A DNA stretch of 31,504 nt. It comes from Thermofilum pendens Hrk 5 (lineage in GTDB: Archaea > Thermoproteota > Thermoprotei > Thermofilales > Thermofilaceae). This document shows, piece after piece, positions 6,813-25,015 of this stretch; positions within the stretch are counted from its first letter, which is position 1; every line of letters starts with the position of its first letter. The stretch lies in NCBI RefSeq assembly GCF_000015225.1, contig NC_008696.1, positions 1-31,504 on the forward strand. Reading direction: 5' to 3'. The position numbers were made by a program, and so were the translations under genes. Below the pieces are notes generated by a model. It did no database searches. It was not told the DNA's origin and saw nothing but the letters and a program-made list of their open reading frames with translations.

Positions 6813-7586
6813 TTACTGTCTCCGCGCCGTCGAAAAGCCCCGGCGACCCTTCTTCTGAGAGCCGTAAAGGGCTCGCCTAAGCTCCTCCCTCTCCTTTCTA
6901 ACCTCGGCGATACGCTCATACATCCTAGCAAGCTCTGCCTCGATTTTAGCCGCCCTCGACAGCATCTCCTTGTCCTTGTTATCGTCCCTGAAAACCTCCT
7001 TTCTAAGCTTCATCCAGACGTAGTAGAGCTTCCAATACCTAGAAATGACCGCGTCAACCTCCCTCAGCCTTCCCGCCAGCTCCTTCATCCTCTTCGCCTT
7101 ATACTCCTCCACGAAAGCTTGGAAAGCCTGACGCCCCCACATCTCCCCTCTACCCTCCACTTTCACCCACTTATCGTGTAGATGCGGCGGTACCTCCTTC
7201 TCGGCGTAATGCCTAGCCTCCTCATCCAGCCCCTGCCACTCCCCCCACAGCATCTTCACTTCATCGACAGCCTTTGCGAGCGCAGGTCTCAGCTCCTCCC
7301 AGCTCCTAGCGAAATCATTGAACTGTGCTACAGCCAAGGGGGGCACGCCCGCCACCTCCGCCGTAAGGCTTCCATCGCGCGCCTGAGCTACAGCCTTCTC
7401 CTCGAACACGTTGCTGAGCCCGAGCCTCACGCTGTCCGCCTCGATTTTCTCCTTGAGCGCCTGTCTAACATACTCGCTTACGCTTACGCCGAGCTGAGCC
7501 GCGATGCGCTTAGCCTGCTCGTAAAGCTCACCTTCCAAGACCAAAGGCACGACCTTAGCGTTTCTAAGCTTTTTGGGACGGGGCAT
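6813..7586 (-). CDS. Ribbon-helix-helix (CopG/Arc-like) DNA-binding protein with a long helical C-terminal domain (257 aa)
   Basis: The N-terminus KVVPLVLEGELYEQAKRIAAQLGVSVSEYVRQALKEKI fits a strand-helix-helix pattern. TATA-like TTTATTTG lies ~35 nt upstream. The gene is bracketed by inverted 27-bp palindrome-containing repeats. Confidence 0.75.
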   Translation of the reverse strand: MPRPKKLRNAKVVPLVLEGELYEQAKRIAAQLGVSVSEYVRQALKEKIEADSVRLGLSNVFEEKAVAQARDGSLTAEVAGVPPLAVAQFNDFARSWEELRPALAKAVDEVKMLWGEWQGLDEEARHYAEKEVPPHLHDKWVKVEGRGEMWGRQAFQAFVEEYKAKRMKELAGRLREVDAVISRYWKLYYVWMKLRKEVFRDDNKDKEMLSRAAKIEAELARMYERIAEVRKEREELRRALYGSQKKGRRGFSTARRQ

Positions 7587-7631
7587 AAGCGTTCAAAACA
7601 CACAGCAATGTCCACACAAATAAAGCCATCG

Positions 7632-7647
7632 TTAATTAATTAATTAA
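7632..7647. repeat. (TTAA)4 16-nt palindromic tract
   Basis: ttaattaattaattaa lies immediately upstream (minus strand) of the RHH gene TATA. Confidence 0.8.
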
Positions 7648-7716
7648 CAAATAATCGAAACCCCGGTAAGAAGAAAAAGTAGCCGAGAAGACAGCGCCTC
7701 TGCGCGCCAGTTTTCG

Positions 7717-7732
7717 CCACAAAATTTTGTGG
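7717..7732. promoter_or_regulatory. Palindrome box copy (perfect), right arm of the 27-bp inverted repeat around the RHH gene
   Basis: CCACAAAATTTTGTGGCTAATCCTCCC spans 7717-7743, ~90 nt upstream of the RHH TATA. Confidence 0.9.
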
Positions 7733-7774
7733 CTAATCCTCCCGTTTTTCTTTTCACGGACTTCCCCCTGTTTT

Positions 7775-7849
7775 CCGCTAAAAATCATTTTTACCTTTTA
7801 TGAGCCGCTCCCAGCGCTCCCCGGTAAAACTCGTTTTCATTTTTATGGG
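7775..7849 (+). repeat. Two ~29-nt direct repeats (7775-7804, 7821-7849)
   Basis: ccgcTAAAAaTCaTTTTtaccTTTTATGaG versus ccggTAAAAcTCgTTTTcatTTTTATGgG, both T/A-rich and TATA-like. Confidence 0.7.
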
Positions 7850-7888
7850 TTGTTCTCTGTTTTCTGAGAGTAGGGGGTATGCTGAACC

Positions 7889-7902
7889 GGGGGTATACCC
7901 CC
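7889..7902. repeat. 14-bp perfect palindrome GGGGGTATACCCCC
   Basis: Read directly. Related GGGGGTAT(A/G) words occur at 7873, 8005 and 8013. Confidence 0.8.
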
Positions 7903-8069
7903 AACCCCCTATTATAATAAGTCTAGACTAAAATAGTATAGGGGGTTAATTATATAACTATCCAACCTTCCTAGTCTATTTTAGACCTATTCTTACCGCG
8001 AAAACGGGGGTATAGGGGGTTCTGGGCATACCCCTTTTCTCAACGAGAACAAAAAAGAAAAAACTCATT

Positions 8070-17858: not shown

Positions 17859-18299
17859 ATGGAGGCTGAGGACTTCCTAGCCGTAGCCTTCGTTCTAGCG
17901 CTAGCCACAGCCCTAGCCCTCGGGCTGTTCACGGAGGGGGTAAAGGCTGTCAGCCCGGCGTGGGCTGGGGGAAGTAGCGGAGGGGGAGGAGGGGGGTCTC
18001 AGGTTAGCCTAGGCGTCGTAGAGCTGGAGGTAGAGGGGTACGCGCCGAGGAGCGCTATACCCCCCGGGGTTCTTTTATCCGCTAAGCCCCTAAACGTTGT
18101 CAACGCTACCTGCAGGTGCCCCGAAGACCCGGAGACGTTCAAGGGCGGGGTAAAGTGTATATGCTGGGTCACGGTCAAGGAGGGGTGCTACCCCCTGTAT
18201 CCCACCCTGTGCGCTAGGACTAACGTGGTGTGCACGGGTAAAAAGTACAGGGTCTGGTGGGTATCGGGGGGCTGGGTCATCCCCACCACGGGGGGCTAG
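17859..18299 (+). CDS. N-terminally anchored/secreted Cys-rich protein (146 aa) with a Gly-rich linker
   Basis: Hydrophobic N-terminus, GGSSGGGGGGS linker, then 8 Cys in the C-terminal domain. Confidence 0.65.
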   Translation: MEAEDFLAVAFVLALATALALGLFTEGVKAVSPAWAGGSSGGGGGGSQVSLGVVELEVEGYAPRSAIPPGVLLSAKPLNVVNATCRCPEDPETFKGGVKCICWVTVKEGCYPLYPTLCARTNVVCTGKKYRVWWVSGGWVIPTTGG

Positions 18300-18300
18300 A

Positions 18301-18462
18301 ATGGAGGGGTTTAGGCGGGAGCTGAAGGAGAGGGCTTTGAGGGCTCTACGGGAGGGGGTAAAAGGGGTGGACTTGGAGAGGGCTCTGAGAGAATTCGAGG
18401 AGACTAGGAGCGAGGTGTGGAGGGAGCTGGAGAAAAAGTATAGGGAGAGGGGGCTAATCTAG
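18301..18462 (+). CDS. Small coiled-coil protein (53 aa), below the ORF-track cutoff
   Basis: My own translation: MEGFRRELKERALRALREGVKGVDLERALREFEETRSEVWRELEKKYRERGLI. The ATG lies 1 nt after the upstream stop. Confidence 0.45.
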   Translation: MEGFRRELKERALRALREGVKGVDLERALREFEETRSEVWRELEKKYRERGLI

Positions 18463-18707
18463 CCCAGCTCTACCTCCAGCTCGAAGTCCTCGCGTATCTC
18501 TTTCACTAGGCGCTTGGCGGCTCTCTCGCTCGCCGCTCTACCTATCTTCTCCAGCTCTCTCTCGAGGTGCACCCAGTCCTCCGAGAGCGCTAGGGTGCTC
18601 AGGAGGGGGTAATCCCAGAACTCGGCTACTTCCTCTCTCCAGTAGTCGCTGAAGTAGGAGGAATCGGCTAGGTACCTGTCCACTACCTCCTTTCTCCGCT
18701 CGCTCAT
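18459..18707 (-). CDS. Hypothetical acidic protein (82 aa)
   Basis: I start it at the ATG at 18707 (MSERRKEVV...), ~30 nt downstream of ATATTTTAAAG (minus strand). The track start at 18881 would run through a repeat arm. Confidence 0.55.
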   Translation of the reverse strand: MSERRKEVVDRYLADSSYFSDYWREEVAEFWDYPLLSTLALSEDWVHLERELEKIGRAASERAAKRLVKEIREDFELEVELG

Positions 18708-18743
18708 CGAGGGGTATAGAGGGGGAGGGGGCTTTAAAATATT

Positions 18744-18841
18744 CCTCGGGAAAAGCCCCGAGAATATGAGGGGTCTACCTCCCTCGTTTTCGCCGTTTCT
18801 GTGGGGCTCGGGGTATAGCCCAAAAGCCCCGTAAGAGGGGG
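18744..18841 (+). repeat. Inverted-repeat arm A (98 nt)
   Basis: Its reverse complement aligns with 22994-23091. The first 28 nt are identical, the next ~27 nt carry 2 mismatches, the middle diverges, and the last ~18 nt match again. Confidence 0.8.
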
Positions 18842-18875
18842 CTAGCCCTCGGACCGAGGGGTGGGGGCTGAATAG

Positions 18876-18891
18876 CCACAAAATTTTGTGG
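18876..18891. promoter_or_regulatory. Palindrome box copy (perfect)
   Basis: Abuts the stop of 18892..19323 and lies just outside repeat arm A. Confidence 0.9.
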
Positions 18892-19323
18892 CTAAATCGC
18901 GGCTAAAGCGTGCTCTACCTTCGCGATTGCTTCGAGGGCCCGGGCGTCCCTGCTCATCCTCCCCTCGACGGCTAGCTCCCTCAGCACTCTTACGTCTTTC
19001 CACGTGTAGGGGTACCTAGACTTGTAGACGTTGAGCAATCTGACTAGGTCGGCGTACTCCCTTCTGCACAGGGCTATCAGGCGGGCTAGGCTCTCCCATT
19101 CATGCGCGCTCAGCCTAGCCCTCTTAGTCTTTTTTCCTCCCCATTCGACCACTACGTAGCCCCCTATCCTCTCAGCCTCCCTTATGTCCTCTACAGCCCT
19201 AGCCGGGATTCCTAGGGCTAAAAGGCTCCTCGCCAAACACTCCGCGGGGTTGTCCGTGCACTCGAATGGTCTAAGCCTCTCGTATACCGCTCGGTAAAGG
19301 GACTCAATCCTAGCCCTGCTCAC
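18892..19323 (-). CDS. Hypothetical protein (143 aa)
   Basis: ORF with a GTG start. Its stop codon abuts palindrome 18876-18891. Confidence 0.6.
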   Translation of the reverse strand: MSRARIESLYRAVYERLRPFECTDNPAECLARSLLALGIPARAVEDIREAERIGGYVVVEWGGKKTKRARLSAHEWESLARLIALCRREYADLVRLLNVYKSRYPYTWKDVRVLRELAVEGRMSRDARALEAIAKVEHALAAI

Positions 19324-19361
19324 GGGGGGATAAGGGAAAAACAGGGATAAAAAGCCACTTT

Positions 19362-19532
19362 TCAGTACTCCCTAACATCGGCTAGGAAGTCTCGGACTAA
19401 CTGCTTTACCTCGGGGTCTTGTAGCAATTCCTCTATAGCCTCTCTAAGAGCCTCCTTTATAGCCTCCTTCACGGTGTCCTTAAGCTCTTTTCTTAGCTCT
19501 TGTAGCTCCTTTATTACCGCTAGCTCTAACAT
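19362..19532 (-). CDS. Small coiled-coil protein (56 aa), below the ORF-track cutoff
   Basis: My own translation: MLELAVIKELQELRKELKDTVKEAIKEALREAIEELLQDPEVKQLVRDFLADVREY. GCTTATATCC lies ~30 nt upstream. Confidence 0.4.
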   Translation of the reverse strand: MLELAVIKELQELRKELKDTVKEAIKEALREAIEELLQDPEVKQLVRDFLADVREY

Positions 19533-19650
19533 TGCTTATTCGATGGCTATACGCCTTAGGGGGATATAAGCCCATCGTTTAAGCCTACAGGCCCTAAAAC
19601 GAAAAAGCCCCGAGGAAAAAGCCGAGAGAAAAAAGCGAGGAAAAAAGGGC

Positions 19651-19749
19651 TTAATTCTTCTGGGGCTGGGGGCTGAGGTACTCAGTCAGAGTCCTCTGGT
19701 CTAGGTAGACGTTTATCGGCACCTGTTTCTTCGGGATTTTCCTCGGCAT
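19651..19749 (-). CDS. Possible 32-aa peptide resembling the N-terminal strand-helix of an RHH protein
   Basis: MPRKIPKKQVPINVYLDQRTLTEYLSPQPQKN lies downstream of type-B promoter block 19774-19824. Its N-terminus resembles that of 6813..7586 (MPRPKK...VVPLVL). Confidence 0.3.
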   Translation of the reverse strand: MPRKIPKKQVPINVYLDQRTLTEYLSPQPQKN

Positions 19750-19773
19750 TTCTCGCCTCACCGAGGTATAGGT

Positions 19774-19824
19774 AAACGGGGTAGCTAATAAGGATTTCGT
19801 TTAACTTTTCACAGGGCTATACGT
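19774..19824 (-). promoter_or_regulatory. Type-B promoter block copy 1
   Basis: aaacggggtagctaataaggatttcgtttaacttttcacagggctatacgt. On the minus strand it reads ...AAACGAAATCCTTATTAGCTACCCCGTTT. Confidence 0.7.
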
Positions 19825-19827
19825 TAG

Positions 19828-19843
19828 CCACAAAATTTTGTGG
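19828..19843. promoter_or_regulatory. Palindrome box copy (perfect; 24-bp palindrome TTAGCCACAAAATTTTGTGGCTAA at 19824-19847)
   Basis: Lies ~36 nt upstream of the TATA of type-B block 19774-19824. Confidence 0.9.
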
Positions 19844-19922
19844 CTAAAGCCCCGAGGAAAAAAGCGAGGAAAAATCTAGGGATAAAATCCTAGGAAAAGC
19901 CCCGGGAATAAGGGCAGTAGCC

Positions 19923-19978
19923 CCCCCTCATTTTCAACGATTCTGCGGGGCACGGGGTATAGCCCAAAAGCCCCTAGA
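19923..19978 (+). repeat. Partial direct copy (B) of arm A
   Basis: Shares GGGGTATAGCCCAAAAGCCCC (19954-19974 versus 18810-18830) plus flanking similarity. Confidence 0.7.
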
Positions 19979-19985
19979 AAAAGGG

Positions 19986-20183
19986 CTATTTCCTGGGCTT
20001 CCTAGCCTCTATGTAGACTCTCACGCCTCTCCTCATTTTCCTAGCCGTGTACGGTCTACTCCTGCGCACCTGTAGCCCCATCCTTATGAGTAGCTCTTCG
20101 ACTGCGCTCACTATCAGCCTGTATTCCTCCTCGCTTATCCTTTCCTTGTCCGCGATAATCCTGATTTGCACGTCTCCCCTCAC
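19986..20183 (-). CDS. Small basic protein (65 aa) translationally coupled to the helicase
   Basis: GTGA overlap with the helicase stop. Confidence 0.6.
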   Translation of the reverse strand: MRGDVQIRIIADKERISEEEYRLIVSAVEELLIRMGLQVRRSRPYTARKMRRGVRVYIEARKPRK

Positions 20184-22081
20184 TGCAATCCCCTCCTCGC
20201 GAATATCGCCTTTAGCTTGTGAAACGCCGTCTCCTCGTGCGTGTAAGCCACGTAGACGTAGAACAGCGTGGCTTTCGTCTTTCCAGGCGCCGGTCTCAAT
20301 AGCCTCCCTGCTCTCTGTATGAGCTGTCTGTCAGTCGTACCGCTCGCTAGCATTACGCCTACGCTTACCTCGGGTACGTCTACTCCCTCGTCTAGCACTC
20401 TGCACGTCACTAGTACTCTGAAGGTTGAGCCCCACTCTTTGAGTATCCTCGCGCGCTCGGTCTTAGGCGTCTTGCTGAGTATCGCTTTTCCTCCGAGTGT
20501 CTGGGCTAGCTTTAACGCCACGTCTTGGCTCTCAGTCCACACTAGTACTCTGTTGTGCTCCTGTGCTAGCCTGTTGATAAGCGCTAGCGCCGAGCTCCAC
20601 TTAACAGGGCTCCTCGCGGCTAGCTGTTTCCTTAAGTTTACCAGCTTCATCAAGTCCTTCTTCAAGTGTTTCTCCCCGTCCTCTATGCGCCTGCTTAGGC
20701 GCCTAATCTTCTCCTGTATCTCCTCGTACTGCTGGTAGAACTCCTGTGTCTCCGTCACTCTTATCCCCACTAGCTCGATTGGCACCATGTAGCCTTGCTC
20801 CTGTAGCTCGCTCGGGCTTACCTCATAGCGCTTAGGTAGTAGCATGTCAAGCACCCACTGCTCTTCTGTGTCCTCGCGCTTGTGCGTCGCGCTAAAGCCA
20901 TAGATGTGCACGCCTAGCCTAGCCAGCCTCGCCAGAGTCCTCGCTAGCTCCCTAGCCCCTGCATGATGGCTTTCGTCAACTATCACTGCGAAAGGCGTGT
21001 AGCCCCGCTTAACCTCGCTCACGAAAGTGTTGTAGACCATTACCGTGATTAGCTCGCCTAGCCCTTGTCCTCGCCTGTTCACTCCCCCGTACTTCACGTT
21101 CACTCTGAGCCTCCACTCCCTCTCAAAGTGGCTAGCCCACTGCTCAGCCAGCACTTGCGTGGGCACGATAATAGCCGTGTCATAGCCCCATAGCGCTAGG
21201 TTCACGGCTAGCGTGCTACCGATAAGCGTCTTTCCGCCGCCTGTGGGGATTTGCACGGCGCCGTGCGCGCTGAGTAGCCATCTAAGCGCTATCCTCTGGT
21301 AGTCGCGCATTTTCTTCGGCACGACAATTTTAGCCACGCGTATTTTCCTAATGCGCTCGCTTAAAACTCTAGCCGTGTAGTCTCTCTCGGTTAGCCCCTG
21401 CTCCCTTAAAAGTTCTTTGAGCCTTTCCTCGTCGCCTGCTAGGTCGGCTAGCAGTTCATAGCCCCATATCGACGTGTCCACGCCTAGGATTATCTGGGTG
21501 CTGGCTTCTTCCTCGGTTAGCTCTAGCTCGCTTATGGCTTGTGGGGCTAGGATTTGTCTCCAGTCTACGTACTGCTCTACGCCTAGCTTTTGGGCTAGCT
21601 CTGCGTATTTGTCTTTTAGGCGAGGATTCTGGGCTAGGATTTGCTTAGCTTCCTCGATTTCCTCGGGGCTAGCCTCGCCTAGCTCTACCTTGTCGGCTAA
21701 CACCGCGAGGCGGCTCTCAAGCCATGAATTGTACTGCGCTTCGACTTCCTCGGGGCTATTATTATCAGAATAATAAGCCCCGCCTAGCCATTTAGCGAGG
21801 ATTTTTTCGACGATAGCCAAATTCTCGCCTAGCGAAAGACTAGAATCTACGGCGTCGCATATGTCGTTGACGATTTCCTGTGTGTCTAGCCCTTTAGCCC
21901 TTATAAGGGCTAAGCGCGAGGCTATAGCCCTAGCTATTTCGAATTCAAGGCTAGGGGCTAAATCGCGGTTACGCCTTATGGCTAGGCGCAATCGCTCTAC
22001 CTCGCTATTGTAGGCGCTTAGAGGATTAGAGTCGGGGCTAACTTCTTTTCCTATAGCCCCCCACGCCTTTTTCTCTCGCAT
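20180..22081 (-). CDS. Superfamily-2 DExH helicase (633 aa; XPB/Rad25 or type III restriction res-subunit-like core) with a ~250-aa unknown helical N-terminal domain
   Basis: Motifs appear in order: I PTGGGKT, Ia IIVPTQ, II VIVDESHH, III FSAT, V TCRVLDEGVDVP, VI QRAGRLLR. TTTTAAGC lies ~26 nt upstream of the ATG. Confidence 0.9.
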   Translation of the reverse strand: MREKKAWGAIGKEVSPDSNPLSAYNSEVERLRLAIRRNRDLAPSLEFEIARAIASRLALIRAKGLDTQEIVNDICDAVDSSLSLGENLAIVEKILAKWLGGAYYSDNNSPEEVEAQYNSWLESRLAVLADKVELGEASPEEIEEAKQILAQNPRLKDKYAELAQKLGVEQYVDWRQILAPQAISELELTEEEASTQIILGVDTSIWGYELLADLAGDEERLKELLREQGLTERDYTARVLSERIRKIRVAKIVVPKKMRDYQRIALRWLLSAHGAVQIPTGGGKTLIGSTLAVNLALWGYDTAIIVPTQVLAEQWASHFEREWRLRVNVKYGGVNRRGQGLGELITVMVYNTFVSEVKRGYTPFAVIVDESHHAGARELARTLARLARLGVHIYGFSATHKREDTEEQWVLDMLLPKRYEVSPSELQEQGYMVPIELVGIRVTETQEFYQQYEEIQEKIRRLSRRIEDGEKHLKKDLMKLVNLRKQLAARSPVKWSSALALINRLAQEHNRVLVWTESQDVALKLAQTLGGKAILSKTPKTERARILKEWGSTFRVLVTCRVLDEGVDVPEVSVGVMLASGTTDRQLIQRAGRLLRPAPGKTKATLFYVYVAYTHEETAFHKLKAIFARRGLQ

Positions 22082-22660
22082 ATTCCTCGCCTAGAATATA
22101 CGCCTAAGCTTAAAACGTGGTATTAGTAATCGACGTTATTAATCGACTCTGGGCTAAAAGAAGTTAGCCAAAATCGCCTATTAGCAATGGCTATAGCCAA
22201 TAGCAGTAGCCATTAGCTATAGCCATTAAGCATTAGAAAAAGAGTCGAATCGCAATTCGACTAAAGGCTATTAGCCCAAAAACGAAACAAAATTCGACTC
22301 TTACGCTATTATTCGAATTGTCAAAACAAAAATCGACGATAGCCTATTAGCCTTTAGGCTAAACGCTTATCGACTCTTACTAATCGACAAAAAGCTAGCC
22401 GAATTTAGCCTAAGAGTAAACGACTATAGGCTAAAGCTCTTTAGCCTATTGGCTATTAGCCCAAAAACGAATAGCCATTCGACTATAGGCTATTAGCCCA
22501 TTGGCTAAAGGCTATTCGACTCTTACGCTATTAGCCCCTATTCCTCTCGCTCTAGCCCCTATTAGCCCTAGCCCTATAGCCCCGTAGAGGTAGAGGAAAA
22601 GGCGAAAACCCTCTAGCCCCTAGGCTAGCCTGTATCCCTTCTTTCCTCCTTTTTCTTTTT
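22082..22660. repeat. Repeat-dense, visibly AT-richer non-coding region; putative replication origin with iterons
   Basis: No credible ORF. The 19-mer TTCGACTCTTACGCTATTA occurs at 22293-22311 and 22515-22533, with variant ATCGACTCTTACTAATCGA near 22369. The 21-mer GGCTATTAGCCCAAAAACGAA occurs at 22266-22286 and 22451-22471. There are at least 8 copies of CTATTAGC(C). The region lies immediately upstream of the helicase gene. Confidence 0.55.
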
Positions 22661-22722
22661 GTTTTTCTTTTCCCTTCTTTTCCAATTTCGCGGAATTGGA
22701 AATGAGGTTTCGGGGCTTTCGT

Positions 22723-22770
22723 GGGGCTTTTGGGCTATGCCGCGAGCCCGTTTACCCCCGTTTCTCTCCC
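22723..22770 (-). repeat. Partial inverted copy (C) of arm A
   Basis: ggggcttttgggctatgccgcgagccc... is the reverse-complement counterpart of the arm core. Confidence 0.6.
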
Positions 22771-22993
22771 TAGCCCCCCTCTGTATCCCCCCTCCCGTAT
22801 ATTGCTCCCGCGACGGGGCGTTTTACACCGATAAAACGAAACAGGGGAAGCCTCCCGTTTTTTCCCTTTTCGCAAAATTGGAAAAAGCGGAGAAACCTAA
22901 AGGAAAAAAGCGCTTAAAACTAGGGCCTGTAAAACGCAATTTTCCCCTCGAACCCGGGGCTAAAGCCCAAGGGCTAGACCCCCTCCGTTAAAC

Positions 22994-23091
22994 CCCCCTC
23001 TTACGGGGCTTTTGGGCTATACTCTGAGCCCCACAGAAACGGCGAAAAAACGGGGGGCTAACCGATTTTGTACCCGGGGCTTTTCCCGAGG
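22994..23091 (-). repeat. Inverted-repeat arm D (98 nt)
   Basis: ccccctcttacggggcttttgggctatactctgagccccacagaaacggcgaaaa...cccggggcttttcccgagg. Confidence 0.8.
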
Positions 23092-23096
23092 AAAAC

Positions 23097-23123
23097 GCGA
23101 GAAAAAAAGAACAGTTTTAGGGG
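23097..23123 (-). terminator. Conserved 3' block / oligo-T terminator (minus strand CCCCTAAAACTGTTCTTTTTTTCTCGC)
   Basis: Directly follows the stop of 23125..23532 and contains a T7 run. Confidence 0.6.
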
Positions 23124-23124
23124 T

Positions 23125-23532
23125 TTACCTGAGGATGCCGCGCTCCCGGGCTATTTTCTCTATTGGGGGAAACGTGTGTTCAAAGCTTGTCCCCAGCCAC
23201 GTCAGAAACTCGCAGTACTCGCTTTCGAAGCCGTCGGTCTCCAAGGCGCGTATCATGCGGTAGTACTGCTCCATGTAGCTAGCCCTGACGAGGATTGTGT
23301 TCTTGAACCCGTAGGCGCATACGAGAGCCTTGAGAGCCCCGAGGAAGTCAACCCAAGCCTGAAGCCCCTCCTCTTCAGCCTTCTTCTGAAGCTCCTCTAT
23401 CTCGTCGATGAGGACGGGTACGTTGACGTCGTTGACCTCGCGGATGGTGTGCACGAGCATGTCTAGGAAGGTGTGCTTGAGGACTGCGCGGCTAGCGTCC
23501 TTGATTTTATCGGCGAATTTCTCGTAGACCAT
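23125..23532 (-). CDS. Hypothetical protein (135 aa), cassette gene 1
   Basis: Type-B promoter block lies upstream and a conserved 3' block lies downstream. Confidence 0.65.
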   Translation of the reverse strand: MVYEKFADKIKDASRAVLKHTFLDMLVHTIREVNDVNVPVLIDEIEELQKKAEEEGLQAWVDFLGALKALVCAYGFKNTILVRASYMEQYYRMIRALETDGFESEYCEFLTWLGTSFEHTFPPIEKIARERGILR

Positions 23533-23555
23533 GGCTTTTCGCCGAGAATAGAGTA

Positions 23556-23606
23556 AAACGGGGTAGCTAATAAACCTTTCGTTTTACACAAAACGGGGCT
23601 AAACGC
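23556..23606 (-). promoter_or_regulatory. Type-B promoter block copy 2
   Basis: aaacggggtagctaataaacctttcgttttac...ggggctaaacgc. The TATA TTTATTAG lies ~35 nt from ATG 23532. Confidence 0.75.
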
Positions 23607-23623
23607 ATGCTAGCCGCGAAAAA

Positions 23624-23639
23624 CCACAAAATTTTGTGG
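23624..23639. promoter_or_regulatory. Palindrome box copy (perfect)
   Basis: Lies ~50 nt upstream of the TATA of type-B block 23556-23606. A T5 run follows on the minus strand. Confidence 0.9.
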
Positions 23640-23693
23640 CTATTCAGCGCGACGGACTCTCCTCACACCCTCGGTAGCCGAGCCTCATCACAC

Positions 23694-23723
23694 GCGAGAG
23701 AGAAAAAAGAACGATTTTAGGGG
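23694..23723 (-). terminator. Conserved 3' block / oligo-T terminator
   Basis: gcgagagagaaaaaagaacgattttagggg follows the stop of 23724..24191. Confidence 0.6.
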
Positions 23724-24191
23724 TTATTCTTCGCAAAAGCCTTCCCAATCCTCCTCTTCCTCCTCCCAGTCCTCCTCGGCGCCTAGGTAGTAGTTGACGA
23801 TGTCCTCGAAGTCCTCGTGGAATTCGACCATCACGTGAATGTCTAGGTCGCTCCACAGCTCAATGACCTCGCCGACGTATCCGAGGAACCACAGGATAAC
23901 CCCGTCTCCTTCAGCCCCCTCCCAGACCTTCAGCTCGTCGTGCTCCTCTATTATGTCCTCGAAAAACTCGCCCTCCCAAATCTCCCTGAGGTGGACGATT
24001 GCGAAGGTCTTGTCCTCGGCGTAGTCGTGACCAAAGGTAAGGACGTAGTCGTAGATATGCTCGGGTGCGGCTAGGTACACGCGCACGTACCTGACGGGGG
24101 AATCGACCTTCTTCAGCTGTGCTCCCCTGTAAAGCTCTCTGACCCTCTTTATCTGCTCCCTCGTTTTCTCAACGGTTGTTGTCACGCTCAT
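23724..24191 (-). CDS. Hypothetical acidic protein (155 aa) with EEDWEEEEEDWEGFCEE tail, cassette gene 2
   Basis: Type-B promoter block lies upstream and a conserved 3' block lies downstream. Confidence 0.65.
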   Translation of the reverse strand: MSVTTTVEKTREQIKRVRELYRGAQLKKVDSPVRYVRVYLAAPEHIYDYVLTFGHDYAEDKTFAIVHLREIWEGEFFEDIIEEHDELKVWEGAEGDGVILWFLGYVGEVIELWSDLDIHVMVEFHEDFEDIVNYYLGAEEDWEEEEEDWEGFCEE

Positions 24192-24203
24192 AGCGGGGTA
24201 TAG

Positions 24204-24257
24204 AACGCGGGGGTAGCTAATAAAGGTTTCGCTTTATTTTTCACGGGGGCTAAACGA
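24204..24257 (-). promoter_or_regulatory. Type-B promoter block copy 3
   Basis: aacgcgggggtagctaataaaggtttcgctttat...gggggctaaacga, upstream of 23724..24191. Confidence 0.75.
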
Positions 24258-24383
24258 AAGCATTTTGTAGCAAATCAGAGCTGTAGGCTCTCCTCACGGC
24301 TCGGCGCCAAGCATGCTCATCACGCGGTTCAACACCGAAACCCTGTTTCGGTCCGAAACTAGAAAAAAGCTTCGAGCGAAAGA

Positions 24384-24412
24384 GCGAGAGAAAAAAAGAG
24401 TAATTTTAGGGG
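24384..24412 (-). terminator. Conserved 3' block / oligo-T terminator
   Basis: gcgagagaaaaaaagagtaattttagggg follows the stop of 24413..24997. Confidence 0.6.
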
Positions 24413-24997
24413 CTAATACTCCTCGTCCTCCCAGTCCTCCTCATCCCAGTCGATGGGCTCGTATTCCTCTCCGTAGTCGTCGAAGTCCTCTTCTTCCTCT
24501 TCGCTAGCCGAGTCGTAGCAGACGCGAGAAGAGTCACACTCGCAGGGTAGCTCGTCCTCGTCTCCGGGCTTCTCCCAGTAGGGTCTAAGAGTGCCCCAGT
24601 CGAAGCCCTCGATAAGCTCCAAGGCTTGAGCCAAGGAGAGCCTCCTGTAGACCCATACCTCGGTCACGATTTCCTCCACAGCCCTCTGAAGCCACACGGG
24701 GGCACACCTAGACGCTTGAACCTTCACCCACCTTTTGCCACCGCGACGGAAGAGCCCCACGTAGACGGCGCGCCTGACGACCGTGCTGTCCGTGATGCCG
24801 TCTCTTCGCCACACGTCGAAGGTGCCCGGTACTCTGAAGCGGTGCTCGCCTATGCGTCCGGCGCAGTAGCCGCCGTCTCCGCAGGGGTAGATGCCGCGCC
24901 ACACGGCTAGCCGTGTGGCTCGGTAGCTCTCGACTGCGTGCTCGGTGCACAAGCCCTGCCTGTCGTCGCAGTTGACCCAGCAGTCTAGTAGGCTCAT
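24413..24997 (-). CDS. Cys-rich protein (~194 aa) with an acidic Trp/Tyr tail, cassette gene 3
   Basis: I prefer ATG 24997 (GTG 25006 is the alternative), ~32 nt from the TTTATTAG TATA. The N-terminus has 6 Cys. The tail is EEEEEDFDDYGEEYEPIDWDEEDWEDEEY. Confidence 0.65.
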   Translation of the reverse strand: MSLLDCWVNCDDRQGLCTEHAVESYRATRLAVWRGIYPCGDGGYCAGRIGEHRFRVPGTFDVWRRDGITDSTVVRRAVYVGLFRRGGKRWVKVQASRCAPVWLQRAVEEIVTEVWVYRRLSLAQALELIEGFDWGTLRPYWEKPGDEDELPCECDSSRVCYDSASEEEEEDFDDYGEEYEPIDWDEEDWEDEEY

Positions 24998-25015
24998 GCT
25001 TATCACGTAAGAGTG

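Follow-up and report, generated by a model that had tools for sequence, protein, structure and literature searches.

Iteron-bearing theta origins of bacterial plasmids, such as those of pSC101, R6K, RK2, P1 and F, contain a series of direct repeats, each about 20 bp long and all in one orientation, an adjoining AT-rich meltable segment and a neighbouring gene of the replication module, with further repeat copies at the promoter of that gene (PMC2926602, PMC4081077). For the Thermococcales plasmids pTN2, pP12-1 and pT26-2, the origin is predicted to lie in the largest intergenic region, which is rich in direct and inverted repeats and is located upstream of a helicase or polymerase–helicase cassette; all of these are predictions, backed by cumulative GC skew (PMC2926602). 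The origin of the crenarchaeal plasmid pRN1 is a single stem-loop of ~100 nt, free of iterons and situated downstream of the rep (primase–SF3 helicase) gene, and the origins of pRN1-type plasmids adjoin a CopG/primase-type module (PMC4234260).

The DNA considered here (the window; 31,504 nt of contig NC_008696.1 from Thermofilum pendens Hrk 5) belongs with pHA1 to a family of plasmids from hyperthermophilic archaea (the pHA1 family), and its largest gene-free gap contains a repeat array upstream of a helicase gene. As in iteron theta origins, a set of direct repeats of ~20 bp, here about 8–10, share one orientation, an A+T-rich, easily unwound segment adjoins them (22289–22349), and copies of the repeat occur at the promoter of the neighbouring gene. 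Unlike those origins, the array is spaced at ~37 rather than ~22 bp, has a period of ~7.4 bp and many dyads, belongs to an archaeal host, and is not accompanied by a gene for a winged-helix Rep, the adjoining gene encoding an XPB-like SF2 helicase with a novel N-domain. The position of the gap matches that of the repeat-rich regions of pTN2, pP12-1 and pT26-2, although the helicases of those elements belong to other families.

A repeat array in the largest gene-free gap

The gap spans 22082–23124 (1,043 bp) and is the longest gene-free stretch in the 31.5-kb replicon; its left half, 22082–22660, had been proposed in an earlier note as a candidate replication origin. That note found no credible ORF in the left half, which held up, and the gene-free DNA extends even further, to 23124. 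The sole ORF of at least 60 aa within the gap (22659–22991) has a TTG start, is of low complexity, has no Pfam match and is missing from a protein collection that contains all flanking genes tested. Scans of GC content and repeat density also agreed with the note in finding the left half AT-richer than its surroundings and dense in repeats. GC content is 0.41 at 22001–22500 versus 0.565 contig-wide, the 400 bp of lowest GC in the contig fall inside the gap, and no 200-bp segment of the contig is less stable than 22259–22459, which ties for last place. Within the gap, the least stable 60 bp lie at 22289–22349 (GC 0.31), making this segment a candidate unwinding element at which the duplex may melt. 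Repeat density (k = 9) at 22082–22660 is 150, versus a contig median of 14 and a value of 13.4 ± 6.9 in dinucleotide shuffles, while the contig maximum (164) occurs in scanning intervals that overlap it. The features of the helicase gene and the gap are as follows.

20180–22081, minus strand: helicase gene, 633 aa
22082–22122, minus strand: predicted helicase promoter with a TATA-like element, TTTTAAG, at 22109–22115, read from the sequence by comparison with other upstream regions
22123–22147, plus strand: two tandem 13-bp repeats, TTAGTAATCGACG and TTATTAATCGAC (TRF period 13)
22152–22169: inverted repeat GGCTAA-N6-TTAGCC
22185–22236: about four tandem 13-bp units, CAATGGCTATAGC
22243–22262: palindrome AGTCGAAT-CGCA-ATTCGACT, with the sole inverted TCGAC box, bounding the main array on the left
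22257–22537, plus strand: main iteron-like array with eight TCGAC boxes, one of them a variant (ACGAC)
22545–22630, plus strand: cluster of TAGCCC(C) words, with CTCTAGCCCCTA present twice
22636–22685, plus strand: 50-nt polypyrimidine tract, polypurine on the helicase-sense strand
22676–22702: palindromic TTCCAATT...AATTGGAA, with a partner at 22861–22907
22686–23124: GC-richer right half of the gap
22708–22800 and 23001–23096: partial and full copies of a ~95-nt dispersed element in the right half
23096–23123: terminator-like block of the neighbouring gene

The eight boxes of the main array are all on the plus strand, at 22257, 22294, 22333, 22370, 22384, 22420 (the ACGAC variant), 22479 and 22516, giving spacings of 37, 39, 37, 14, 36, 59 and 37 bp. 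The repeating unit can be written as TCGAC-N5/6-GCTATTAGCC, of which there are about 8–10 in one direction, often 37 bp apart, and a sub-period of ~7.4 bp is evident from the enrichment of offsets of 7, 15, 22, 30 and 37 bp (z = 4.3–6.4). Across the region 22082–22660, one strand carries nine exact TCGAC boxes and the ACGAC variant, with one further box inverted; at the density seen in the remainder of the contig, 0.9 plus-strand copies would be expected instead of nine (p = 6e-7). GGCTA/TAGCC half-sites, which occur in both orientations and at variable spacing, are ~5-fold over-represented contig-wide (318 copies), and the region holds 30 of them where the remainder of the contig would predict 5.4 (p = 2e-13).

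Longer words are confined to the region: CTATTAGCC (six copies in one orientation), ATTCGACT (four copies and one inverted) and TCGACTCTTAC (three copies) have no copy outside it on either strand of the 31.5 kb. The 19-mer TTCGACTCTTACGCTATTA (22293 and 22515; variant TCGACTCTTAC at 22370) and the 21-mer GGCTATTAGCCCAAAAACGAA (22266 and 22451) were found where the earlier note had placed them, whereas its count of at least eight CTATTAGC words was too high: seven exact copies lie in the region, and an eighth, at 3105, sits in coding sequence. All copies of this word are on the plus strand. The array is real, statistically extreme, one-directional and iteron-like.

Towards the helicase gene, the array begins about 10 bp upstream of the TATA box, the centre of which lies ~31 nt before the helicase ATG. 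It starts there with the two 13-bp repeats at 22123–22147, each carrying one TCGAC box (22130 and 22143), and these form a candidate operator for autoregulation. The word TATTAGC, described earlier as shared between the iteron core and the TATA element of type-B promoters, does recur there, with five of its six minus-strand copies lying in the conserved block AAACGAAAGGTTTATTAGCTACCCC.

The helicase module and its conservation in the pHA1 family

Residues ~250–633 of the adjoining helicase form an XPB/Rad25-type SF2 core (Pfam ResIII, DEAD, Helicase_C and ERCC3_RAD25_C), and match PDB 2fwr, the XPB of A. fulgidus (E = 1e-33). The premise of a replicative helicase, on which the origin had been proposed, does not stand, as the gene product is not an MCM, DnaB or SF3 helicase. 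To our knowledge, no member of the XPB/Rad25 family acts as a replicative helicase or initiator. A linker separates this core from a novel, entirely helical N-domain (residues ~17–125). The AF2 model of the N-domain is confident (pLDDT ~90 for residues 21–100), though comparison with the PDB gave no fold match and no detectable DNA-binding fold, so the modelled fold is no evidence for DNA binding.

Relatives of the helicase were found by exhaustive phmmer with its N-terminal 240 aa followed by profile searches, and those in the profile search include proteins from Thermofilum and Thermofilaceae MAGs. An exact look-up and a close-relative search with the full helicase returned nothing, and a word-indexed search returned generic SF2 helicases only. 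Searches of phage and plasmid collections with the window by megablast and blastn likewise gave no match, nor did tblastn of a 624-aa protein. Five relatives were compared with the window, namely pHA1 (GU722198.1), for which 23 of the 59 proteins match the window, and four metagenome contigs (L081, L088, L089 and L092). In all five, the longest gene-free gap, of 0.68–1.14 kb, lies directly upstream of an N-domain gene and an XPB-like helicase (1,002 bp in pHA1, 1,137 bp in L081, 1,100 bp in L088, 678 bp in L089 and 1,121 bp in L092, versus 1,043 bp in the window). Each gap contains the lowest-GC interval of its locus and has a repeat density that is the highest or among the highest there. In the relatives, the N-domain has a gene of its own, immediately ahead of the helicase gene, while the two are fused in the window.

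The closest comparison is with pHA1, where the gp31–gp32 intergenic region (18091–19092) occupies the same position and is the longest, lowest-GC and most repeat-dense gap of the plasmid. Both gaps have a short-period tandem substructure. The array of pHA1 consists of 8-bp tandem units and that of the window of ~20-bp TCGAC...GCTATTAGCC units about 37 bp apart, and the pHA1 locus also differs in having the N-domain and helicase as separate genes and divergent genes flanking the gap. The repeat words are specific to each element, for example TTATCTAACCTTTAAAAT in L088, TACATGTAAA in L081 and about 45 tandem copies of the 8-bp GGTATANN in pHA1, and the sub-periods are ~7.4 bp in the window, 8 bp in pHA1 and L092, and 7 bp in L088. 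The gaps showed no DNA similarity to one another, and the GC-rich "core" of the gaps proved highly divergent when aligned across the relatives. The same layout with element-specific words is the pattern expected if a site co-evolves with its binding protein, and its recurrence beside the same helicase module agrees with a cis-acting site for protein binding, for instance an origin.

Other features are shared by part of the family. A comparable purine/A-rich tract occupies the same relative position in L088 and L089, and the repeat words of L081 and L088 resemble local TATA boxes by eye. The gap and helicase module are kept without a detected primase-like gene in the window and, as judged from Pfam listings, in the examined parts of L081 and L089, a point in favour of an origin in the gap. 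Against it, L094 and L095 encode related helicases and have no large upstream gap. The dispersed palindrome GCCACAAAATTTTGTGGC, tried as a probe for the family, gave only single chance matches in viral, genome and metagenome collections and was discarded.

A proposed replication origin and competing readings

Nearly all ORFs of at least 89 aa were compared with Pfam, and the larger ones with PHROGs and NCBIfam as well; these scans detected no gene for Rep, Orc1/Cdc6, MCM or primase in the window. An origin of the archaeal oriC type would adjoin orc1/cdc6, and the proteins scanned gave no AAA+ or Orc1 match. A search for origin recognition boxes (TCCASWGGAAA and TCCANNGGAAAC, 0–1 mismatch) found none in 22082–22660 and one 1-mismatch match in the wider gap (23084), with a consensus based on Sulfolobus, Aeropyrum and Pyrococcus that may differ from the host's own. 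For partition genes, the proteins scanned gave no family match to ParA or ParM, and the strict Walker-A motif [AG]xxxxGK[ST], searched in six frames, had no match inside a credible gene, leaving the helicase as the only NTPase identified in the window. The protein encoded at 6813–7586 has weak, sub-threshold matches to ribbon-helix-helix (RHH) families, and several small plasmid proteins begin MPR.... Scans for bacterial sigma-70 promoters and terminators carry no meaning here because the replicon is archaeal.

GC skew, which the earlier note had put forward as a check, gave no support to an origin at 22082–22660. Raw skew tracks gene strand (r = 0.62); its cumulative curve bottoms out at 7,822 and peaks at 18.9 kb, and the profile of pHA1 is a broad trough inseparable from gene orientation. 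Skew at four-fold sites has its minimum at 21.2 kb (site-permutation p = 0.0025), a signal that is driven by few genes and was rejected as origin evidence on permutation of gene order (p = 0.46). GC skew was dismissed as evidence in either direction.

We tentatively favour the reading that the region is a cis-acting binding array for a plasmid protein and, most likely, the origin of vegetative replication or a region controlling it. The array itself, its AT-richness and the conserved layout are in keeping with the origin proposed earlier, while the replicative helicase on which that proposal also drew has fallen away and skew lends no support. A serious if rather unlikely competitor places the origin at the AT-rich locus 7587–8069, where a pRN1-like stem-loop lies by the RHH gene; the gap would then be a partition, copy-control or regulatory region, overlapping with the next two readings. 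The earlier note had named 7.6–8.1 kb as an alternative, and its stability profile, stem-loop and shared words make it a credible one. The least stable 40–100-bp segments of the contig are found here, at 7.6 and 7.9 kb, together with a dyad stem-loop of ~190 nt whose centre is AT-rich (DNA fold z = −6.8). The raw cumulative skew minimum also falls within this locus, close to diverging transcription at 8.9 kb, although gene strand accounts for it. The locus adjoins a homologue of pHA1 gp05 and shares the 12-mers TAATTAATTAAT, GTTTTCATTTTT and CTATTTTAGACC with a spacer of 351 bp that follows the primase-like gene (DUF5906) of pHA1; this gene lies with a CopG gene about 17 kb from the pHA1 gap. 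However, each shared 12-mer is non-significant, their order is not fully collinear, they were not found in the examined parts of L081, L088, L089 and L092, the pHA1 spacer has no significant structure (z = −0.33), and the window has no homologue of the primase-like gene. The array shares with the pRN1 origin a crenarchaeal plasmid setting and a DNA structural element near a replication operon, while the single stem-loop of pRN1 is better matched by 7.85–8.05 kb of the window (PMC4234260).

The array is unlikely to serve solely in controlling transcription of the helicase operon, through multiple operators, activator sites and TATA-like decoys and with no part in replication: its closeness to the TATA box, with two TCGAC repeats there, the match of the iteron core TATTAGC with the TATA element of type-B promoters and the TATA-like words of L081 and L088 suit such a role, yet 400–500 bp with tens of sites, polypurine tracts and ~450 bp of further gene-free DNA far exceed any other promoter here, and the gap is the most AT-rich DNA in every relative examined. 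Improbable as well is a centromere-like partition or copy-control site coated by an RHH protein and serving segregation or incompatibility. RHH centromere-binding proteins use arrays with periods of 4–11 bp, a range that includes the ~7.4-bp period found here. The parH site of TP228, parS of pSM19035 and parC of R1 likewise consist of short (4–11 bp), degenerate, plasmid-specific repeats, both direct and inverted, as do the 7–8-bp sub-periods, half-sites in both orientations and element-specific words of this family, and the plasmid encodes the RHH-like protein at 6813–7586 and the small MPR... proteins. In contrast to those centromeres, the array lies outside any par operon, the window has no partition NTPase gene linked to one for a binding protein, and the synteny of the array is with the helicase module. 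Very improbable, finally, is transcription of the region as one or more structured non-coding RNAs, such as an RNA that controls copy number and terminates at the T-rich tract 22636–22685. The array has RNA fold z-scores of −8.5 and −10.0 on the two strands, indicating strong self-complementarity, and a strong oligo-T run follows just 3' of it on the plus strand, while the right half of the gap has no significant structure (z = −0.67). Because both strands fold equally well, dyad sites at the DNA level fit better than a strand-specific RNA; moreover, the Rfam scan gave no match, the tRNA scan found none, sequence and structure are not conserved with the relatives, and no convincing rightward promoter was seen.

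A possible initiation mechanism and its implications

If the region is an origin or its control region, as we favour, a plasmid-encoded protein would bind the ~20-bp TCGAC-N5/6-GCTATTAGCC units and the 7–8-bp sub-repeats cooperatively and in one orientation. We infer both that replication starts there and which protein binds: our candidate is the novel N-domain, which is part of the helicase here but the product of a separate adjoining gene in the relatives, with one of the plasmid's many ribbon-helix-helix proteins as the alternative. Binding would distort the adjoining low-stability DNA at 22289–22349, the tethered XPB-type double-strand DNA translocase may assist its opening, and components of the host replisome would be loaded next, since genes for a polymerase and a primase are both missing from the plasmid. 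Through the two 13-bp TCGAC repeats by the TATA box, the same protein may regulate the helicase gene. A partial parallel is offered by the SV40 core origin, which also has pentanucleotide half-sites in both orientations (GAGGC, versus GGCTA/TAGCC here) with a flanking AT-rich tract and palindromes, and a helicase with an extra N-terminal domain, here a putative origin-binding domain; the SV40 helicase is an SF3 AAA+ protein rather than SF2, and the present array is ten times longer.

A bolder extension, which we regard as a long shot, is that the N-domain and the XPB-type SF2 translocase constitute a new kind of replication initiator. XPB within TFIIH opens promoters. By analogy, the N-domain would anchor on the element-specific array while the XPB motor tracks along the neighbouring duplex and twists the AT-rich segment open, allowing host MCM and primase to load without a Rep or Orc protein. 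We know of no link between XPB and replication initiation in any domain of life, and the proposed mechanism, if true, would tie an XPB-type DNA-opening motor to this process. The gap and helicase would then represent the minimal replicon of this Thermofilum/Thermoproteales plasmid family and of related viruses.

Should the array prove to be a centromere or regulatory site instead, it would still spell out which sequences an as yet unknown DNA-binding protein of archaea recognises, and six natural sequence variants of the array could be compared. We know of no plasmid or virus of the Thermoproteales with a mapped replication origin, and genetic tools for these hyperthermophiles are scarce. The conserved, delimited cis-element and its helicase module are a candidate minimal replicon and a starting point for a shuttle vector.

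Repeat architecture of the gap upstream of the helicase gene

The helicase gene (20180–22081, minus strand, 633 aa) is preceded by the longest intergenic region of the contig, at 22082–23124. The ~580-bp non-coding stretch described in the earlier note is free of genes as claimed, but the gene-free sequence extends further than was stated there; mechanical ORFs within the gap gave no family matches and were missing from a protein collection that includes all flanking genes tested. The left half of the gap (22082–22660) had a k = 9 repeat score of 150, compared with a contig median of 14 and with 13.4 ± 6.9 in dinucleotide shuffles, and windows overlapping it reached 164, a repeat density unmatched elsewhere in the contig. 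It also contains the contig's lowest-GC 400-bp window (0.383 versus 0.565 overall). Its description as repeat-dense and AT-rich held, and every repeat word listed for it was found in place. The words CTATTAGCC, ATTCGACT and TCGACTCTTAC are confined to this region within the contig, while GGCTA/TAGCC is over-represented contig-wide and still exceeds that background here (30 copies versus 5.4 expected, p = 2e-13).

Features of the gap, read on the plus strand
22082–22122: helicase promoter, with a TATA-like element at 22109–22115 on the minus strand
22123–22147: two 13-bp repeats with TCGAC, adjoining the helicase TATA element
22152–22169: dyad
22185–22236: four 13-bp tandem units
22243–22262: palindrome
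22257–22537: main array, eight TCGAC boxes in a single orientation
22545–22630: cluster of TAGCCCC words
22636–22685: polypyrimidine tract of 50 nt
22686–23124: GC-richer part with copies of a dispersed ~95-nt element

Within the main array, each TCGAC box is followed after 5–6 bp by a near-palindrome resembling GCTATTAGCC, and the boxes are spaced 37, 39, 37, 14, 36, 59 and 37 bp from start to start. Autocorrelation is enriched at offsets of 7, 15, 22, 30 and 37 bp, a sub-period of ~7.4 bp with five sub-units per 37 bp. Folding of either strand of the region is far more favourable than that of shuffled controls (z = −8.5 and −10.0), a pattern typical of DNA dyads and not of a strand-specific RNA, and an Rfam search of the region returned no match. 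The assignment of the region as a putative protein-binding array is well supported.

The ~95-nt element occurs at 18749–18844 (−), 19893–19988 (−) and 23001–23096 (+), with a partial copy at 22708–22800 (+), placing two copies in the right half of the gap. Its core, GGGGCTTTTGGGCTAT, is invariant; the element also has a hairpin, CTCGGGGCTTTTCCCGAG, and in two copies is followed by a TATA-like box.

The helicase module and its plasmid family

The contig, covered in full by the window (31,504 bp), has no terminal repeats and encodes a tyrosine integrase, a single helicase, a protein whose ribbon-helix-helix matches are weak and below threshold, and several proteins that appear by eye to be secreted or membrane-like; archaeal BRE/TATA-type blocks lie about −30 before its gene starts. 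Because 23 of the 59 proteins of pHA1 (GU722198.1; circular, 33,795 bp, from a hyperthermophilic archaeal enrichment) match the window, it can be assigned by sequence to the pHA1 plasmid family. Four tandem paralogous genes at 3846–5609 share the motifs LGGC(R/I)VE and SPEELY and have no family assignment.

The helicase core (aa ~250–633) matches PDB 2fwr (E = 1e-33), NCBIfam XPB and Pfam ERCC3_RAD25_C. On these matches it is an archaeal XPB/Rad25-type SF2 enzyme, not MCM, DnaB or SF3, and the earlier premise of a replicative helicase was wrong. The N-terminal ~125 residues make up an all-helical domain of their own (N-domain; AF2 pLDDT ~90 for residues 21–100), whose AF2 model had no match in a PDB fold comparison and whose homologues were found by exhaustive phmmer search. 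The window's single gene joins what in all relatives are two or three separate genes, encoding an N-domain protein, an XPB-like core and, in some cases, a coiled-coil protein (compared with L081 6490–8667, L088 9387–11167, L089 7929–9646 and pHA1 19093–21314).

Relatives gathered by profile searches and contig look-ups
L081: 31.2-kb contig, at least 12 genes common with the window; gap repeat word TACATGTAAA
L088: helicase 49% identical to the window's; gap repeat words TTATCTAACCTTTAAAAT and GGTTA/TAACC
L089: helicase 45% identical to the window's
L092, L093: from 33.6-kb contigs
pHA1: plasmid relative; gap repeat of about 45 tandem 8-bp units of GGTATANN

The N-domain and XPB-like helicase genes, fused in the window, form one module in all five distinct relatives, each with a 0.68–1.14-kb gap directly upstream. 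In every case the lowest-GC window of the locus falls inside the gap, and the gap ranks first or near the top for repeat density. The order of parts is similar, most plainly so in the window, L088 and L089: a purine- or A-rich tract (helicase-sense strand), an AT-rich short-repeat array, then the promoter. Comparison of the gaps found no sequence in common, and the repeat words differ from element to element; a conserved position with rapidly changing words is expected of a binding array co-evolving with an element-encoded protein. L094 and L095, whose helicases are more distantly related, have no such gap.

Five independent contigs from different samples (L083–L087) have a free-standing 132-aa N-domain as their first gene, and all five start 125–278 nt upstream of it; two have homologous ends. 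These start positions and ends suggest the termini of linear archaeal viruses. In the two contigs read (L083 and L085), the common upstream sequence has a palindrome, CGACAATTGTCG, adjoining a TATA-like box, and a promoter block, ACGAAAGGTTTATATACCCC, resembling the window's type-B block.

Other repeats and word biases

A 16-bp perfect palindrome, CCACAAAATTTTGTGG, has 14 copies at ≤1 mismatch (0 expected by chance), at 4286, 5195, 5637, 6480, 6795, 7717, 9225, 10480, 13794, 18876, 19828, 23624, 27461 and 28976. Inspected copies lie at gene boundaries or starts, with none in the 22.1–23.1 kb gap; the palindrome could be a terminator element or the operator of a regulator acting across the plasmid.

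Short palindromic words resembling restriction sites are strongly depleted (counts and Markov expectations both sum the two strands, a palindromic site counting as 2): GATC (2, one site, versus about 122 expected), GGCC (56 versus 394), GCAGC/GCTGC (0 versus 69), CCAGG/CCTGG (2 versus 67), GGACC/GGTCC (2 versus 56) and GTCGAC (0 versus 22). Among tetramers, AGCC/GGCT shows the strongest over-representation. The intergenic region second in repeat density, 19324–19985, contains small uncalled minus-strand ORFs (~55 aa at 19365–19533; ~32 aa from near 19745, ribbon-helix-helix-like by eye), a type-B promoter block near 19784, and tandem GAAAAAGCCxxGAG repeats.

Candidate functions of the array

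Of the functions that the array could have, replication origin or control region is the best fit, since this is the longest intergenic region and the extreme one in AT and repeat content, is tied to the sole DNA-motor gene, is kept in family members without a detected primase-like gene, and shares its layout with regions predicted as origins in other archaeal plasmids (PMC2926602). Against an origin, no known initiator family was found among the window-encoded proteins and no ORB element within the array, and the pHA1 gap lies opposite a CopG gene and a primase-like gene (DUF5906).

GC skew, proposed earlier as a check, gave the origin no support. Raw skew (minimum 7.8 kb, maximum 18.9 kb) is correlated with the strand on which genes lie (r = 0.62). 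At four-fold sites the minimum, at 21.2 kb, reached significance by site permutation (p = 0.0025) but not by gene-order permutation (p = 0.46), and the pHA1 trough is inseparable from gene orientation; skew is uninformative here. A local four-fold-site reversal occurs inside a co-oriented gene block at 21330–25006, where plus-strand G is well above C in the N-terminal part of the helicase gene and the three genes right of the gap, and the helicase core has the opposite skew; by gene-order permutation this reversal falls short of significance.

A candidate origin in place of the array is the locus at 7587–8069, likewise AT-rich and free of genes. It has the contig's least stable DNA and a stem-loop formed by a dyad of ~190 nt (DNA fold z = −6.8); three 12-mers of this locus recur in the spacer that follows the primase-like gene in pHA1, and the locus resembles a pRN1-type origin (PMC4234260). 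It contains TTAATTAATTAATTAA and repeats of GGGGGTAT. By analogy, the array may instead be centromere-like, as arrays with this 7–8-bp periodicity resemble centromeres bound by ribbon-helix-helix proteins, although the window encodes no partition NTPase.

The origin interpretation of the array is plausible: it loses its replicative-helicase premise but gains strength from the conservation of the layout across the family, and we rate the region as an iteron-like array linked to a module with an XPB-type helicase. In such a system, the N-domain would anchor on the array, 22289–22349 would be opened with the help of the XPB motor, the host replisome would be recruited, and the promoter-proximal repeats may allow autoregulation.
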